NCBI GenBank assembly: GCA_021828195.1
Contig: JAKASQ010000002.1
Span: forward strand, 344,292-408,291
Direction of reading: 5' to 3'
Source: Thermoplasmata archaeon
GTDB lineage: Archaea; Thermoplasmatota; Thermoplasmata; Lutacidiplasmatales; UBA184
DNA length: 64,000 nucleotides
Shown: positions 21,165 to 25,248 of the stretch, piece by piece
How the letters are laid out: every line of letters begins with the position of its first letter
How positions within the stretch are numbered: the first letter of the stretch is position 1
The notes under the pieces: model-generated
What the model was told of the DNA's origin: nothing
Seen by the model: only the letters and a program-made list of their open reading frames with translations
Database searches by the model: none
Program-made: the position numbers and the translations under genes

Positions 21165-21986
21165 ATGCCGGAGGAGAAGTTGCCCGACACCCCGGAGACG
21201 GAGCCCGCTCGAGCCGGCGCGCGGGTCCATTCGGCGGAAATCTTCTGCGTAGCCTGCGATCGACTCACGTCCCACCGCATCCTACACGTCGACCGCACGG
21301 GCCACCGGCCCAACGCCCCGATGCGCGGAGTCGCTCGGTGCCGTGCCTGCGGGCTCGTCCACCCGTTCTCGTCGGCTCCACCGGCCTCCGTCCAGGTCGC
21401 CGAGATCATCTCGGAAGGGCCCGCCTCCACGCGACGGATGATCCAGTTGCCCGAAGCCCGCCGGCTCCAGGTCGGAAGCGGGGTACCCGAATCCGATGTT
21501 CCGGTGATCATCCACAAGATTGAGAATCGCCTGGGCCGTCCCGTGCCCGAGGCCCGGTCCGAGGAGATCGGGACCTTGTGGGTGACGCGCGATCTCGGTG
21601 CGGTCGTGCCCGTCTCGATCGTCGAAGGTCGCCGCACGCGCCCCGCCCGGCTCGTCGTGCCTCGGGAGACGATCCTCGTCGTGGGCGAGCGGATCCGAGT
21701 CGAGGAGACCGAGATCGTGATCGCCGGGCTGCGCGCCCGCGCTCGAAGCTGGCGAAAGCCGGGCGACGCCTTCCCCGCGGGCGAGGTCATCCGGCTCTAC
21801 GGGCGGCGCAACGTGATGCCGCCGGCGGGAAGGAGCGACTGGAGGAGCGATCGGGAGATCCCCAGCTCGCGGGCGAGTACGGACTCCCGTCCGGACCGGA
21901 CCCGTTCGTCCCCCGGTGTGAGAAGGACGCGCAGTCCCCCGCGGGGAGCGAACGCCGAGGGCGGAGCGACCGTCCACAGTTCGTGA
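21165..21986 (+). CDS. HVO_0476-like archaeal zinc-finger protein
   Basis: CVAC...HRIL...RCRACGLVH zinc ribbon followed by two similar beta domains ending IGTLW and VIRLYGRR. Confidence 0.75.
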   Translation: MPEEKLPDTPETEPARAGARVHSAEIFCVACDRLTSHRILHVDRTGHRPNAPMRGVARCRACGLVHPFSSAPPASVQVAEIISEGPASTRRMIQLPEARRLQVGSGVPESDVPVIIHKIENRLGRPVPEARSEEIGTLWVTRDLGAVVPVSIVEGRRTRPARLVVPRETILVVGERIRVEETEIVIAGLRARARSWRKPGDAFPAGEVIRLYGRRNVMPPAGRSDWRSDREIPSSRASTDSRPDRTRSSPGVRRTRSPPRGANAEGGATVHSS

Positions 21987-24031
21987 CCCTCGTAGGTCAC
22001 GGTCCCGATCCCGAGCTCGAGCGGCAGGTCCTTCAGAACGTTCTTCGTCCCCTCGATGACCCAGGCTCCCTTCGCCACGAACTCCCCGGTGTTCGGGGAT
22101 TTCGATACCTGCTCCGGCTGGACCCAGAACGCCGAAGCCGAGGCGAGACCCGCGCGCCAGGCCTTCGAGAACGCCACGGCCCACTGGGCCGCCTCGCGGA
22201 TCGTCACCTCGGTGACCGCCGGTCGTCCCGGATCGGGCCGTTTGACGATCACGCTCGCCGCGCCATGGAGATCGGCGTGCAGGTACACGTCCCCCTCCCG
22301 CAGGTGGCGACGCACCACGAGATCGTTCGAGGCCGCATCGCGCCCCGCGATCACTATCGCTCCTTCGGAAGAGAGGAACCAGCGGTAGCGTTCGAACCAG
22401 CGGGGTTTGCGCGCCCGCGAGGCCGGAGTTTCGGCCGAGGGGGCCCGCGCGGCGGTGCTCGGAGTCTGGGCAAGGCGCGCCTCCGTCTCCGCCAGTGCGG
22501 TGCGGGCCCCCCGGAGCTTGCTCTGAAGGCGCTTGCCTTCCTCGTAGAGTGCCTGGGCCGATCCTTGCAACGGTCGATCGAGCTGCAGGGGGATGGAACG
22601 CTCCCCGAGACGGACGGCCACCTCCCGCTTCTCCGAGCCCTCCGCGCGGGCCCGTGCCAGGGCGGCCTCCGCCTCCTGGTAGTGAGCATAGATCGACTCT
22701 GCCTGGGCACTGAGCTCTTGTGCGGCGGATTCCAGGGACTCAATCGCGGTGCGCTGGCGGGCCGCCTGCCGTTCGAGGTCCTCCCGCGCCTTGTCGACCG
22801 CCGAAATCTCGACAGGCACGGCCGCGGTCGTGACCGTGCGGAAGTACCGATAGGCGGCCTCGCCGAACGTGGGGGTTTCCACCTCTCGGACCGACGGGTC
22901 GGCCGCCCAGCGCAGCCCATGGTAGGGGCTGGCGTCGACAGGAACCCCGTCGCGCTCGTAGAGGTATCCTCGGGGAGGATCTCCGAGCTCTGCGTAGACT
23001 TCGCGGATCGCGCGAAGGAGGGCCGGGGCGATCCGTGTGGCGTCGGTCGACGCGGGTCCGTCCGGGATGCCGGACCTTGCGAGGATCTCCTCGGCGATCG
23101 GACCCCCGAGGGCGAGCCGGGCCGCGAGCGTGCTCGAGAGATCCGTCCGGGAGCGGGCGAGCTCTCGTTCGAGCGTCTCGCGGTCGGCACTCCAGGGGTC
23201 CGCCCGCTCCGGCGGGCGAGTGTACTCGGCCCCGACCCGCATCGTCCGGTGCGCCCATGTCCGAGGTCGGGCGACGGCGGCGATCTGTCCCCCTCGGGTC
23301 ACGAGCAAGTTCCCGGGTCCGAAGATCTCGAGGATCAGTCCGAGCTTCTCGCCGTCCGCACGCCGAAACTCGAGCTCGACGTACCGCTCCCCACGCGGTT
23401 CGCTCACCGTGTGAAGGATCGAACCGGAGAGGAGCCGGCGCAGCTCCTTGGCAAGGGGGGTCAGCTCCTCGGCGTGCTCGGCCCGCTCCTCGACCAGCGC
23501 CCCGTAGCGCCCGGGCACGAGCACGAGCTCGCGGCGGCCGGCCGATGCGGACCGCATGGTGACGGACCAGCCTCCCCCCGGGAGGTCGAACGCCTTGTCA
23601 ATGCGCCCGTGGACGGCCCTTCGGAGCTCGCGCGAGAGCGCGAGCATGTCGAGGGCGCTGAACCGGTCCTTGGGCGTGGGCTGAGACGTGACATCTTCCC
23701 CCGAACTCGTTCGGGGGCTTCCTCGGCGCGGTGTGGCGCCACCTTCACCGGCCCCACTTACAAGAGGGTGTTGCGCCCCCCTCCCTTCGGGGAGGGGGGT
23801 TTCGGATGGGGTGTCTCCATCCCTGGTGTCCGTCTCCGGCTTGGGTGCCACACCGCGCCGGACGGTTCCTGCTTCACGGACCCGGCTCGCTCCCGAGGGA
23901 GTGGAGGCCGCAGTTTCTGCAGGTGCGAATACCCCGGTGCCCCCGGGTACGACGGACCCGTGTGGTGCGAGTACTTCAGGCTCGCTAACCCCCCTACAAG
24001 TAGGGGGGCCTGCGCTCGCCGGCTTCGTCAA
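21797..24031 (-). CDS. rqcH: Ribosome quality control factor Rqc2/RqcH (NFACT), interrupted in frame by a 339-nt element
   Basis: FSALD..ALSREL N-terminus, EIFGPGNLLV, WFERYRWF, GRDAASND, HADLHGA, QVSKSP.TGEFV.KGAWVI; proposed TTG start at 24031 (alternative GTG at 24055). Confidence 0.9.
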   Translation of the reverse strand: MTKPASAGPPTCRGVSEPEVLAPHGSVVPGGTGVFAPAETAASTPSGASRVREAGTVRRGVAPKPETDTRDGDTPSETPLPEGRGAQHPLVSGAGEGGATPRRGSPRTSSGEDVTSQPTPKDRFSALDMLALSRELRRAVHGRIDKAFDLPGGGWSVTMRSASAGRRELVLVPGRYGALVEERAEHAEELTPLAKELRRLLSGSILHTVSEPRGERYVELEFRRADGEKLGLILEIFGPGNLLVTRGGQIAAVARPRTWAHRTMRVGAEYTRPPERADPWSADRETLERELARSRTDLSSTLAARLALGGPIAEEILARSGIPDGPASTDATRIAPALLRAIREVYAELGDPPRGYLYERDGVPVDASPYHGLRWAADPSVREVETPTFGEAAYRYFRTVTTAAVPVEISAVDKAREDLERQAARQRTAIESLESAAQELSAQAESIYAHYQEAEAALARARAEGSEKREVAVRLGERSIPLQLDRPLQGSAQALYEEGKRLQSKLRGARTALAETEARLAQTPSTAARAPSAETPASRARKPRWFERYRWFLSSEGAIVIAGRDAASNDLVVRRHLREGDVYLHADLHGAASVIVKRPDPGRPAVTEVTIREAAQWAVAFSKAWRAGLASASAFWVQPEQVSKSPNTGEFVAKGAWVIEGTKNVLKDLPLELGIGTVTYEGHELWTVAPPSAFAPRGGLRVLLTPGDERVRSGRESVLARELGISRSLLQSLLPAGGITLRRP
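23688..24026 (-). mobile_element. Non-autonomous IS200/IS605-family element (PATE-like) with a TnpB omegaRNA-like scaffold
   Basis: Follows TTGAC; left guide CAGG plus hairpin CCCCCCTAC-TT-GTAGGGGGG; right guide GAAG plus hairpin CCCCCGAAC-GA-GTTCGGGGG, ending GATGTCAC; internal CCTGC...GTGAAGCAGGAA; no tnpA or tnpB. Confidence 0.8.
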
Positions 24032-24072
24032 CGTACCTTCCGCCTCGCCGAACACACCGACCCGACGGCGGG

Positions 24073-24080
24073 CCTTAAGG
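24073..24080. promoter_or_regulatory. Palindromic TATA-like box between the divergent rqc2 and acyl-CoA dehydrogenase genes
   Basis: CCTTAAGG is the clearest TATA-like sequence in the short gap; similar CTTAAG/TTTATA motifs precede many genes in this window. Confidence 0.5.
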
Positions 24081-24120
24081 GTTGGTTGGCATCTGCGCGG
24101 GCATGCGCCCGGCGGGGATC

Positions 24121-25248
24121 ATGGGCACGCCCGACTGGCGGCAGCGGGCTCGAAGGTTCGTGAGCGAGCGCCTCGCTCCGATCGCGGCAGATATCGATCG
24201 AACCGACCAGGTACCTTCCGACCTGATGGCGATCCTCGGCAGGGAAGGGTTCACGGGCCTCGGCATCCCGGCGGAGTGGGGGGGGAGCGATGGGAACTCG
24301 GAGTCGACCGCAGCGGTCCTCGAGGAGCTCGCAGGGGCAAGCGCGGCGGTCGCCACCGATCTCTCCGTCCATCTCTCGGTCTGCGCGGCCCCGATCCTCC
24401 GATGGGGGACCGATGCGCAGCGAACGCGATTCCTTCGCCCGCTCGCGGCGGGCCGTTTCCTCGGTGCGTTCGGACTGACCGAGCCCGGGGTGGGCTCCGA
24501 CGCGGCGCGTCTCGCCACTCGATACGAACGAGCGCCGAACGGCTTTCGACTCCGCGGCTCGAAGATGTTCATCACCAACGGTGCATCCGCCGCCGTCGTG
24601 CTCGCCTTCGCCACGCGCGACCCCGCTCTCGGTTCCCGGGGGATCTCCGCCTTCCTGGTCCCCCAAGGCACTCCGGGGTACTCGGTCGCTCAGCGCCTGG
24701 ACAAGATGGGGATCCACGGGAGCGAAACGACCGAGCTCGTCTTCGAAGACGCCCACCTTCCCGAGGACGCTCTGCTCGGAGCGGAAGGAGAGGGACTTTC
24801 GATCGCGCTCGGCGCGCTCGCCGGGGGCCGGATCGGCATCGCCGCGTGCGCGCTCGGCGTCGCACGTGCCGCCTTCGAGGAGATGTGCCGGTCCGCCCGA
24901 CTTCGCAGCCACGAAGAGGATCGCGCCTGCGTGGCGCGCGCCTACGTCGAACTGGAGTCCGCCCGGGCCCTGGTTGAGGCTGCGGCGCGCGCGAAGGACG
25001 CCGGTCGACCCTTCGAGATCGCCGCCTCCGCCGCGAAGCTGGCCGCTTCGGGAGCGGCGGTCTCGATCGCGTCGGTGGGGCTCGACATCGCGGGCCCCGC
25101 TGGGACCCGGGCCGGGCATCTGGCGGAGCGCCTGTTGCGCGACGCTCGGGTCTTCCCCATCGTGGAGGGCACGACCGAGATCCAGGAGCGGCTCCTCGGC
25201 CGCTCGCTGATCGAGCAGGGTGGACCCTCCGCCGAGCGAACCCCTTAG
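24121..25248 (+). CDS. Acyl-CoA dehydrogenase family protein
   Basis: AFGLTEPGVGSDA, GSKMFITNG, KMGIHGSET, GRIGIAA, IVEGTTEIQ. Confidence 0.9.
   Translation: MGTPDWRQRARRFVSERLAPIAADIDRTDQVPSDLMAILGREGFTGLGIPAEWGGSDGNSESTAAVLEELAGASAAVATDLSVHLSVCAAPILRWGTDAQRTRFLRPLAAGRFLGAFGLTEPGVGSDAARLATRYERAPNGFRLRGSKMFITNGASAAVVLAFATRDPALGSRGISAFLVPQGTPGYSVAQRLDKMGIHGSETTELVFEDAHLPEDALLGAEGEGLSIALGALAGGRIGIAACALGVARAAFEEMCRSARLRSHEEDRACVARAYVELESARALVEAAARAKDAGRPFEIAASAAKLAASGAAVSIASVGLDIAGPAGTRAGHLAERLLRDARVFPIVEGTTEIQERLLGRSLIEQGGPSAERTP

Follow-up and report, generated by a model that had tools for sequence, protein, structure and literature searches.

The 64-kb stretch of DNA analysed here (the window) comes from a Thermoplasmata archaeon (assembly GCA_021828195.1, contig JAKASQ010000002.1, positions 344,292 to 408,291 of the forward strand) and contains the gene rqcH with a 339-nt block lodged at its start. 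The block begins with GAAGCCGGCGAGCGCAGG, ends with GGGGGAAGATGTCAC and sits directly after a TGAC motif, between bases 5 and 6 of the rqcH coding sequence; beyond it, GTCTCAGCCCACGCCCAAGGACCGGTTC... continues as a 630-codon NFACT/RqcH gene. The block, the RNA scaffold within it and rqcH all lie on the minus strand of the window. Because the block is 113 codons long and stop-free in the rqcH frame, the rqcH open reading frame (ORF) stays open. Judged by its sequence, the block at 24026-23688 (-) derives by deletion from an archaeal tnpB-only IS200/IS605 element and carries no gene; it is of the kind known as a palindrome-associated transposable element (PATE) or MITE (for miniature inverted-repeat transposable element). 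A preliminary description, made from the sequence alone, had seen here an orphan scaffold resembling a TnpB omegaRNA, whose bases would also serve as rqcH coding sequence and transposon end. The open frame through the element agrees with the coding part of this proposal. A covariance model together with homology to tnpB 3' ends, described below, supports the view that the scaffold is of the TnpB omegaRNA type and makes up the right end of an IS200/IS605 element without genes.

The insertion was compared with the locus in the nearest sampled species (genome G004, RqcH 95% identical), which reads ...GGAGGATACG TTG TCG TCT CAG CCC ACG CCC AAG GAC.... This site equals the window flanks joined without the 339 nt and with nothing duplicated (junction ...GGAGGATACGTTGTCGTCTCAGCCC), and its sole difference is TGTC where the window has TGAC. 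The same empty rqcH junction was found in one RNA-library contig of a public run, and the insertion was absent from all 19 orthologous rqcH loci of the genus that were examined (one of them, row L047, from the unpublished genome G018). Sequence comparison thus dates the insertion to the time since this lineage and its nearest sampled species parted. In two further studies, DNA contigs span the right-end and left-end junctions from the flanking genes, which rules out that the insertion allele arose by misassembly of a single sample; the empty-allele DNA joint was looked for in runs X9 and X11, and none was seen. Downstream of the insertion, the rqcH body is collinear with that of G004 over 630 codons (94.8% nucleotide identity, dN/dS 0.17, no stop).

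To place the block in a family, we searched the 1.62-Mb assembly of its own genome by blastn. The search returned whole-length copies (E=3e-32 and E=1e-24) and end matches beside tnpB genes, a family match far beyond chance. TnpB zinc-ribbon family matches occurred in nine stretches of the genome, six of them inside full-length elements of 1361-1373 nt. These six elements begin after TGAC with G..CCGGCGAGCGCAAG and end with GGAGGATGTCAC, so that the ends common to the family are TGAC-G...GGATGTCAC. The family TnpB has 409 aa and three Pfam TnpB domains, and one member (P0003) matched the ISDra2 TnpB structures 8bf8/8exa with E=2e-45 over residues 7-377. All three RuvC motifs and the zinc-finger motifs were recovered by regular expression in five of the six tnpB copies, the sixth lacking only an exact GVDLG. 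A cognate TnpB is thus encoded in the same genome, as the scaffold proposal had required.

The two ends of the rqcH copy can be matched to these elements separately. The left end was 90-93% identical to three tnpB elements over 52-54 nt and 77% identical to C2:69405, while the right-hand 263 nt (23950-23688) were homologous to the tnpB 3' end plus right end of the six tnpB elements; over the last 37-38 nt it shared 97% identity with a tnpB element's right end, at C2:70745-70782. Thus, the subterminal hairpins at both ends are related to those of full-length elements at 90-97% identity. At 339 nt the element is too short for TnpA or TnpB and encodes neither, only the last tnpB codons (VPGGTG...) surviving. 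The founding deletion removed nearly the whole tnpB ORF, with its edge a few bases 5' of the first RNA helix (P1). The element has a short motif on its 5' side, which was TGAC in 17/18 left ends from its own and related genomes; it has no terminal inverted repeats, and the G004 site shows no target-site duplication. Solo fragments resembling a left end and a right end were also seen at C3:35366-35449 and C4:37915-37986 (19.9 and 17.6 bits with the RNA model below) and are probably remnants of decayed family copies.

The assembly holds a single gene for a Y1 TnpA (PF01797, 117.6 bits). The insertion sequence (IS) that bears it has a left-end hairpin, CCCCCCAACTTGTTGGGGGG, near-identical to the left-end hairpin of the rqcH copy. 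Because this hairpin recurs in the ends of the tnpB-only family, the tnpA-bearing IS is likely to be the trans-mobiliser of that family. The tnpA gene (C6:670870-671226) lies within C6:670790-672340 (L060), divergent to a different tnpB, and the right end of its IS reads ...GCCACCGAGTTCAATCGGTGGTCGTTGAC. Mobilisation in trans gains indirect support from sites that hold a gene-less copy (hereafter mini-element) in this genome and are empty in G004.

To characterise the RNA, we aligned family members and derived a covariance model. In full-length copies, the last 164 nt comprise the final ~40 tnpB codons plus the right end and are conserved across TnpBs that are 35-100% identical. Alignment A2 held 19 tnpB-linked copies and no mini-element, and model R1 was built from it; its E-values are rough, as calibration was shortened. 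Alignment A1 held 29 tnpB-linked sequences (MAFFT) and misplaces the terminal hairpin of short-form relatives; only its P1, P2, P3 and tail columns were used, with segment-wise alignments elsewhere. RNAalifold on A2 gave a hairpin P1, a long-range helix P2 closing a stem P3 with an apical hairpin, a variable P4 and a terminal hairpin P5, with 21/44 pairs compensated (Table 1).

Table 1. Positions of the element, its RNA parts and the surrounding rqcH features in the window, with the other gene-less copies of the family
Feature	Positions	Strand	Remarks
Whole non-autonomous IS200/IS605 element (PATE/MITE)	23688..24026	-	339 nt; no target duplication
Left end	23951..24026	-	~76 nt; subterminal hairpin CCCCCCTA-CTTG-TAGGGGGG at 24008-23989
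P1 hairpin CCCGG-GGGCA-CCGGG	23933..23947	-	remnant of tnpB codons VPGGTG; 5/5 pairs intact
P2 5' strand CCTGC	23919..23923	-	pairs with 23872-23868; 5/5 pairs intact
P3 stem ACT-G-CGGC with GCCGGGT	23880..23914	-	7 bp and one bulged G; pairing read from the sequence
P3 apical hairpin CTCC-CTCG-GGAG	23901-23890	-	CCCC-TTCG-GGGG in the G392 copy
P2 3' strand GCAGG	23868..23872	-	covarying partner of CCTGC
Expanded variable P4 domain	23719..23865	-	P4-like hairpin and ~100 extra nt
P4 closing helix, GGCGCGGTGTGGC with GCCACACCGCGCC	23859-23847 with 23737-23725	-	perfect, 13 bp
P5 terminal hairpin CCCCCGAA-CGAG-TTCGGGGG	23698..23717	-	8 bp; right-end subterminal hairpin
3' tail AAGATGTCAC (AAGAUGUCAC)	23688..23697	-	element end, complete; UGUC at 23693-23690 is the proposed pseudoknot 3' strand
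Would-be guide GTCTCAGCCCACGCCCAAGG	23668..23687	-	third base of native codon 2 and codons 3-9 (first base) of rqcH
Target/transposon-adjacent motif TGAC	24027..24030	-	flanks the left end of the element
Native rqcH start codon TTG	24029..24031	-	preceded by GGAAGG; overlaps the target motif
TTAA (TATA-like) box, inferred rqcH promoter	24072..24081 (TTAA ~24078-24075)	-	~45 nt upstream of the start codon
rqcH body, intact	21797..23687	-	NFACT_N and NFACT-R_1, Pfam E=4.8e-29 and 4.1e-32
Other gene-less copies, own genome	C2:236214-236549; C6:134846-135181; C6:427956-428297
Other gene-less copy, relative (G392)	L130 348-686

R1 matched the window at 23811-23953 (-) with 64.0 bits (E=4.9e-19) and at 23688-23787 (-) with 29.9 bits (E=3.7e-8). 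The next minus-strand match in the window reached 11 bits, and the 13.5-bit plus-strand match was the palindromic terminal hairpin itself. The model scored 177-198 bits on the six tnpB-linked copies of the same genome, 30-64 bits on its four gene-less copies and 23-133 bits on ten tnpB loci of the lineage outside the training set (including a haloarchaeal plasmid, and L095 from G018), whereas one Deinococcus and one Thermus tnpB locus gave no match. These scores show that the scaffold derives from a tnpB 3' end plus right end, and together with the blastn end matches they supply the similarity to tnpB 3' ends whose absence would have spoken against the preliminary description.

Over P1, P2, P3 and the pseudoknot in A1, 96.6% of alignment cells could pair compared with 82.3% in column shuffles, and 0/500 shuffles reached the observed value; with slid partners, pairing fell to 34-45%. 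Pairs changed on both sides numbered 15/22 in all, comprising 14/18 in P1, P2 and P3 and 1/4 in the pseudoknot. All five P1 pairs covaried across the 29 tnpB-linked sequences (e.g. GGGAG/CTCCC, CGGCA/TGCCG), as did 7/8 pairs of P3, and P5 pairs covaried as well (CG 9 / AU 8 at one position). For P2, the pairing of CCTGC with GCAGG, suggested earlier from the window alone, proved real and covarying (UA 18 / CG 9 at one position, CG 27 / AU 2 at another). All pairs of P1, P2, P5 and the pseudoknot were intact in the rqcH copy. These results indicate a conserved, covarying structure of the kind expected of an omegaRNA.

The tail, GGAGGATGTCA, was nearly invariant in the 29 sequences, and its RNA reads ...AUGUCAC in the window. 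Pairing of the P1-loop GGCA with UGUC (-6..-3) held in 29/29 sequences (GU 27 / AU 2 and AU 28 / UG 1), and three variants kept the pairing. We tentatively propose a pseudoknot between the two by analogy with a known omegaRNA; variation here was small, with 2 + 1 variant sequences. The preliminary description had instead paired GTGA with the terminal TCAC. This pairing did not hold up: its outer two pairs failed in 24/29 and 17/29 sequences, and 439/500 shuffles reached its score. A likelier partner for the terminal UGUC, following the ISDra2 precedent, is the first hairpin's loop. All strings quoted in that description were present on the minus strand, including CCTCCAC (~23906-23901) and GTGA (23877-23874); its opening string GTACCCGGGGGCACCGGGGT begins at 23950, the position 23952 given for it being two bases off. 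GTGGAG:CTCCAC was also considered as a conserved helix and dropped, since low-GC relatives lack CTCCAC and the mini-elements have an altered GTGGAG. Single-sequence minimum-free-energy folding was not relied on (full-length fold z = -0.7).

Searches of Rfam behaved differently from the family's own model. No Rfam family matched 22500-25000 below E 0.1, and none matched a full-length tnpB element of the family up to E=1; because full-length family copies match no Rfam family either, the negative result is uninformative. The covariance-model check suggested at the outset succeeded with the tnpB-trained R1 and not with Rfam families. The best Rfam match, a weak one to the Sulfolobus RNA sRNA133 (Sso133) at 23744-23817 (-), fell inside an insert specific to the mini-elements; it scored 24.1 bits (E=0.1), the gathering score being 44, and was taken as chance.

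We then determined which motif precedes the family and what the 3' flank would target. The base before TGAC in the 18 left ends was A in 6, G in 9 and T in 3, and never C, in a genome of 67% GC. The left-end sequences point to TGAC, or DTGAC, as the conserved target motif rather than the TTGAC put forward earlier, of which only the TGAC part stood. The absence of C has two possible explanations: either the target- or transposon-adjacent motif (TAM) is DTGAC, or NTG is kept as a potential in-phase start codon. Starting with the base that follows the TG of the motif, the tnpB frame stays open and in phase through the whole left end (30-34 codons) as far as the tnpB ATG. This was seen in 11/11 complete close relatives, giving frames of 439-584 aa for a 409-aa protein (e.g. 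C6:618257-619621); with only ~30 codons of homologous GC-rich sequence, the observation was judged uninformative and is probably an effect of GC-richness.

The flank beginning at 23687 reads GTCTCAGCCCACGCCC, and TGAC (24030-24027) followed by GTCTCAGCCC... is by construction the rejoined site. As the preliminary description had stated, the guide flank placed after TGAC rebuilds the empty rqcH allele, and this equals the G004 site exactly save for the TGTC of G004. The 3' flank thus finds its match in the vacated site directly after the TAM, in the manner of an omegaRNA guide. The 20-mer guide was unique in the genome, where it occurs only as the element's own flank and is preceded by TCAC, not TGAC; in G004 it is preceded by TTGTC.

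To examine how the scaffold has fared in elements without tnpB, we compared the mini-elements with one another. Five gene-less copies were found, four in this genome (including that in rqcH) and one in the relative G392, and they were 59-82% identical to one another. Between P2 and P5, low-GC relatives have no insert (0 nt), whereas the tnpB copies of this genome have one of ~42 nt and the mini-elements one of 138-150 nt. Within the mini-element lineage, compensatory changes were found in P2, the P3 apical hairpin and the long P4 helix. In P2, CCUGC/GCAGG in the rqcH copy corresponds to CUCGU/GCGAG in the 82%-identical G392 copy, a double compensation; the P4 closing helices of other copies are also perfect and differ in sequence (GGGCGGAACAG/CTGTTCCGCCC, GGGAGCGCAAACA/TGTTTGCGCTCCC; 16 bp in G392). 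TnpA is not known to need the P2, apical or long P4 helices, and the compensatory changes in the mini-elements therefore argue for selection on the RNA.

The mini-elements also appear to have moved recently. The other assessable sites were empty in G004 (2/2). For the copy at C6:134846-135185 the G004 site reads TGAC-GCAGTT, with no duplication, and for the copy at C2:236210 the G004 contig diverges and ends at the site. The mini-elements differ by 18-41%, compared with a dS of 0.14 for rqcH between this genome and G004. Old element lineages at young sites fit a mode of movement by excision followed by re-insertion better than one by copying. When metagenomes were scanned for the exact pattern of the mini-element left-end junction, 5 loci came up, all of them unrelated chance matches that added no further copies; a search of genome contigs for related loci gave only 4 loci.

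On these grounds, we propose that the rqcH copy is a gene-less element that keeps a complete right-end RNA gene, which is transcribed and served in trans by TnpB; we put the probability of this reading at about 0.6. Its steps are modelled on the published scheme as laid out in the preprint of Meers et al. (PMC10055086) and in the abstract of PMC10278001, the latter of which describes how TnpB processes the mRNA that encodes it. A transcript begun at the rqcH promoter, or at one in the left end, would run through the scaffold into rqcH. The element lies in sense orientation downstream of the conserved TTAA box of rqcH, which was found as cTTAAgg or cTTAAtg at the same distance in 18/19 orthologous loci (TTATT in the remaining one) and is, on this sequence basis, the inferred rqcH promoter. 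TnpB from one of the six full-length copies would bind the scaffold and trim the RNA, leaving the first 16-20 nt of the flank (GUCUCAGCCCACGCCC...) as guide. The single TnpA would excise the element scarlessly and restore the rejoined site TGAC+GTCTCAG... (TTGACGTCTCAG). This rejoined TGAC-GTCTCAG... would be cut by TnpB, and a genome copy in which the element is still present would serve as template for the repair. As long as the element is there, the target is preceded by TCAC, not TGAC, and should escape cutting, and the TGTC of G004 would escape both insertion and cleavage. Targeting of the vacated donor site is generic to every IS200/IS605 omegaRNA and is not special to the rqcH copy.

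Several observations weigh against this proposal. In two metatranscriptome runs (X19 and X20), no RNA contig covered the rqcH copy, lack of cover not being the same as absence; the runs did yield a low-depth (~5) contig of the rqcH 5' end, and this carried the empty allele, not the insertion allele. Processing of the RNA would sever the rqcH start codon from the body of the gene, which ought to cost the host dearly. No tnpB-linked copy has the ~100 additional nt that the scaffold carries between P4 and P5, and the motif GTGGAGA, which encodes TPVE and does not vary among tnpB-linked copies, reads GCAGAAA in the rqcH copy; we take this change as probable release from a protein constraint, though it could also mean loss of a TnpB contact. 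Three sister mini-elements carry one mismatch in P2, the pseudoknot or both, which is some sign of family decay. Carriers are few, as a DNA search found the family in 4/61 genomes of the genus, with five mini-element copies in all. The RNA runs also contained two contigs on a relative's full-length right end, one 176 nt long with a depth of 134 and the other 151 nt long with a depth of 187, which begin near P1 and reach 12 or 3 nt beyond TCAC; these contigs show neither RNA ends, strand nor level, and they offer a weak hint that the omegaRNA of the family is abundant in a relative.

The uncovered insertion in X19 and X20, the ~100-nt expansion, the lost GTGGAGA and the sister mismatches, together with a mutual identity of just 59-82% among the copies, would also suit an inert passenger: a PATE moved by TnpA alone, in which the omegaRNA part is what remains, in decay, of the parental tnpB 3' end, yields no discrete RNA and is of no use to TnpB, and which is retained by drift or for want of excision. 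We consider this possible, if rather unlikely. A decaying leftover does not readily account for P1, P2, P3 and the long P4 helix, none with a known TnpA role, being kept by compensatory substitutions among the mini-elements, nor for every core pair being intact in the rqcH copy; the founding deletion, moreover, spared the conserved RNA region, its edge falling just short of P1. Alternatively, the host may have taken the insertion over, either as a structured 5' leader that tunes how rqcH is translated or how stable it is, or as a disordered N-terminal extension of 113 residues that is tolerated or of use; in either case the link to TnpB would be irrelevant. The open frame and length divisible by three, the native start codon, GGAAGG and promoter box kept upstream, the presence of the allele across both junctions in DNA contigs of two further studies, and the intact rqcH body with its dN/dS of 0.17 are all in keeping with such a role. 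However, the insertion is young, being absent from all 19 orthologs, and the dN/dS mostly reflects time before it. The peptide is rich in P, G, S, T, A, E and R, with no Pfam domain before residue 136 of the fused ORF, and its amino-acid sequence is unconserved between mini-element lineages owing to frame shifts; the same element family also occupies unrelated loci. Host takeover therefore seems very improbable.

The idea that the block is an ancestral structured N-terminal extension or leader of rqcH, lost elsewhere and never mobile, draws on the continuous open frame only and can be given next to no credence. It is already refuted by the exact absence in G004, where the flanks abut at TTG(T/A)C-GTCTCAG, by four further copies with the same ends at unrelated loci, by ends shared with tnpB elements, and by the empty sites of other copies in G004.

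The reading frame of the mini-elements was analysed further. Their lengths of 339, 336, 342, 336 and 339 nt are multiples of three in 5/5 copies, and the frame phased with TG-AC-G contains 0 stops in 5/5 copies, whereas the other two forward frames contain 10 and 19 stop trinucleotides (counts that leave out the TGA of the target motif). These 29 stop trinucleotides fall at 13 alignment columns, none in the phased frame. In dinucleotide shuffles, the phased frame was open in 6-9% of trials per copy. With columns counted once, 14 column-frame cases avoid frame 2, giving (2/3)^14 = 0.003 before the lengths are considered, and three independent lineage lengths add a factor of ~1/9 to 1/27; these values are tempered by the relatedness of the copies and by the frequency of open frames at 67% GC (3/15 reverse frames were open too). 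The full-length tnpB elements are not multiples of three in length. The regularity is suggestive. Like Rickettsia palindromic elements (RPEs), all five copies combine a length divisible by three with one stop-free frame; the conserved peptide and frequent residence in ORFs seen in RPEs were not found, as frame shifts alter most of the peptide and 1/5 copies is in a gene.

From this regularity one may speculate that the mini-elements are shaped to live inside genes, with the same 263 nt selected at once as transposon end, TnpB scaffold and translatable sequence, and with TnpB homing locking the insertion into a conserved gene. The NTG-AC-N target could itself serve as a start codon followed by Thr, and the codon broken by the insertion would be made whole again by the last two bases of the element (AC). 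Where an element lands directly behind a start codon, as happened in rqcH, it would then add only a disordered N-terminal tail. We regard this extended scenario as unlikely.

Gene-less elements that keep an omegaRNA are already known. PATEs "often encode omegaRNAs" that need TnpB in trans, according to Meers et al. 2023 (PMC10055086). As described there, the PATE-like ISGst elements of Geobacillus stearothermophilus resemble the rqcH copy in being protein-less, in having ends related to tnpB elements of the same genome, in keeping an omegaRNA for a trans-acting TnpB and in being moved by a TnpA encoded elsewhere. The rqcH copy differs in being archaeal, in its ~100-nt scaffold expansion and in lying in frame at codon 2 of a host gene, and it is known here from sequence. 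What is distinct here is the archaeal clade, the large P4 expansion and, above all, the first-codon position.

The closest structural reference is ISDra2 of Deinococcus radiodurans (PDB 8h1j, 8exa), with a TnpB of 408 aa compared with 409 aa here. In its omegaRNA, positions -5..-3 pair ~100 nt upstream (-103..-105) beside stem 1, stem 2 encloses stem 3, and stem 4 abuts the tail (cryo-EM structure, Nakagawa et al. 2023, PMC10097598). The order of RNA parts is the same, so that by analogy only, stem 2 would correspond to P2, stem 3 to P3 and stem 4 to P5. The ISDra2 TAM, TTGAT, is related to the TGAC found here. In contrast, there is no detectable RNA sequence homology (R1 matched neither the Deinococcus nor the Thermus locus searched), the pseudoknot partner lies in a 19-nt loop in ISDra2 and would lie in a 5-nt hairpin loop in this family, and the family has an extra P4 domain between stems 2 and 4.

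PATEs were defined in Haloquadratum walsbyi as products of core deletion from IS605/IS1341-type transposons (Dyall-Smith et al. 2011, PMC3119063, excerpted text). Those elements and the rqcH family are both archaeal, lack terminal inverted repeats, have near-terminal palindromes, cause no target duplication, and consist of heterogeneous copies with strain-specific insertions. The Haloquadratum work predates the omegaRNA; its excerpted text is silent on RNA function and reports no in-frame insertion at a gene start. In-frame fusions to host ORFs are made by RPEs and other MITEs (review PMC10969869), and like the mini-elements, the Rickettsia elements are small and non-autonomous, with a length and frame that permit host read-through. 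They differ in having a conserved peptide, whereas the mini-element peptide is not conserved, 1/5 copies lies in a gene, and the mini-element is also an RNA-guide gene.

The rqcH insertion thus shows cleanly, in nature and with an empty site as control, a TnpB guide-RNA element that has lost its gene, and it does so in an archaeal class that has received little study. The covarying omegaRNA architecture is defined for an archaeal TnpB clade that has no Rfam family, and the model finds tnpB 3' ends from Thermoplasmata to a haloarchaeal plasmid. The position is unusual, five bases into a conserved ribosome-quality-control gene that is still readable. If the RNA is made and used, a host mRNA and a transposon guide RNA with opposed interests would be one transcript, and homing would shield from loss an element lodged in a gene of its host. 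Direct tests are possible for the predicted TAM (TGAC), the guide and the compact 409-aa TnpB.

Within the genus, a start codon (ATG, GTG or TTG) stands at the exact position of the window TTG in 13/19 orthologs and at most 2 codons away in the other 6, and a conserved KDRF motif follows a few residues after the start. The neighbours of rqcH are an acyl-CoA dehydrogenase gene and a gene for a Hel308-type archaeal helicase. The record titles of relatives place the lineage in Thermoplasmata, and the runs with the same DNA are mine-drainage, sediment and soil metagenomes.

Besides the copy inside rqcH, three of the five mini-elements lie ~45-66 nt upstream of a gene on the same strand. One of these, the G392 copy, was considered as an insertion at the start of a thioredoxin gene; this was rejected, as the best ortholog aligns only from a downstream ATG, and judged from that ortholog the copy lies ~66 nt upstream of the trx start. 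The fifth copy, at C6:427956-428301, is antisense to a 415-aa gene on the opposite strand and directly adjoins that gene's 3' end. The gene now takes its stop codon from the TGA within the terminal GTGAC of the element, where G004 reads ...GAG TCG TAG; the junction lies at L002 1499-1504 (C6 ~427954-427959), and the corresponding G004 locus is L125 ~2000-2012.

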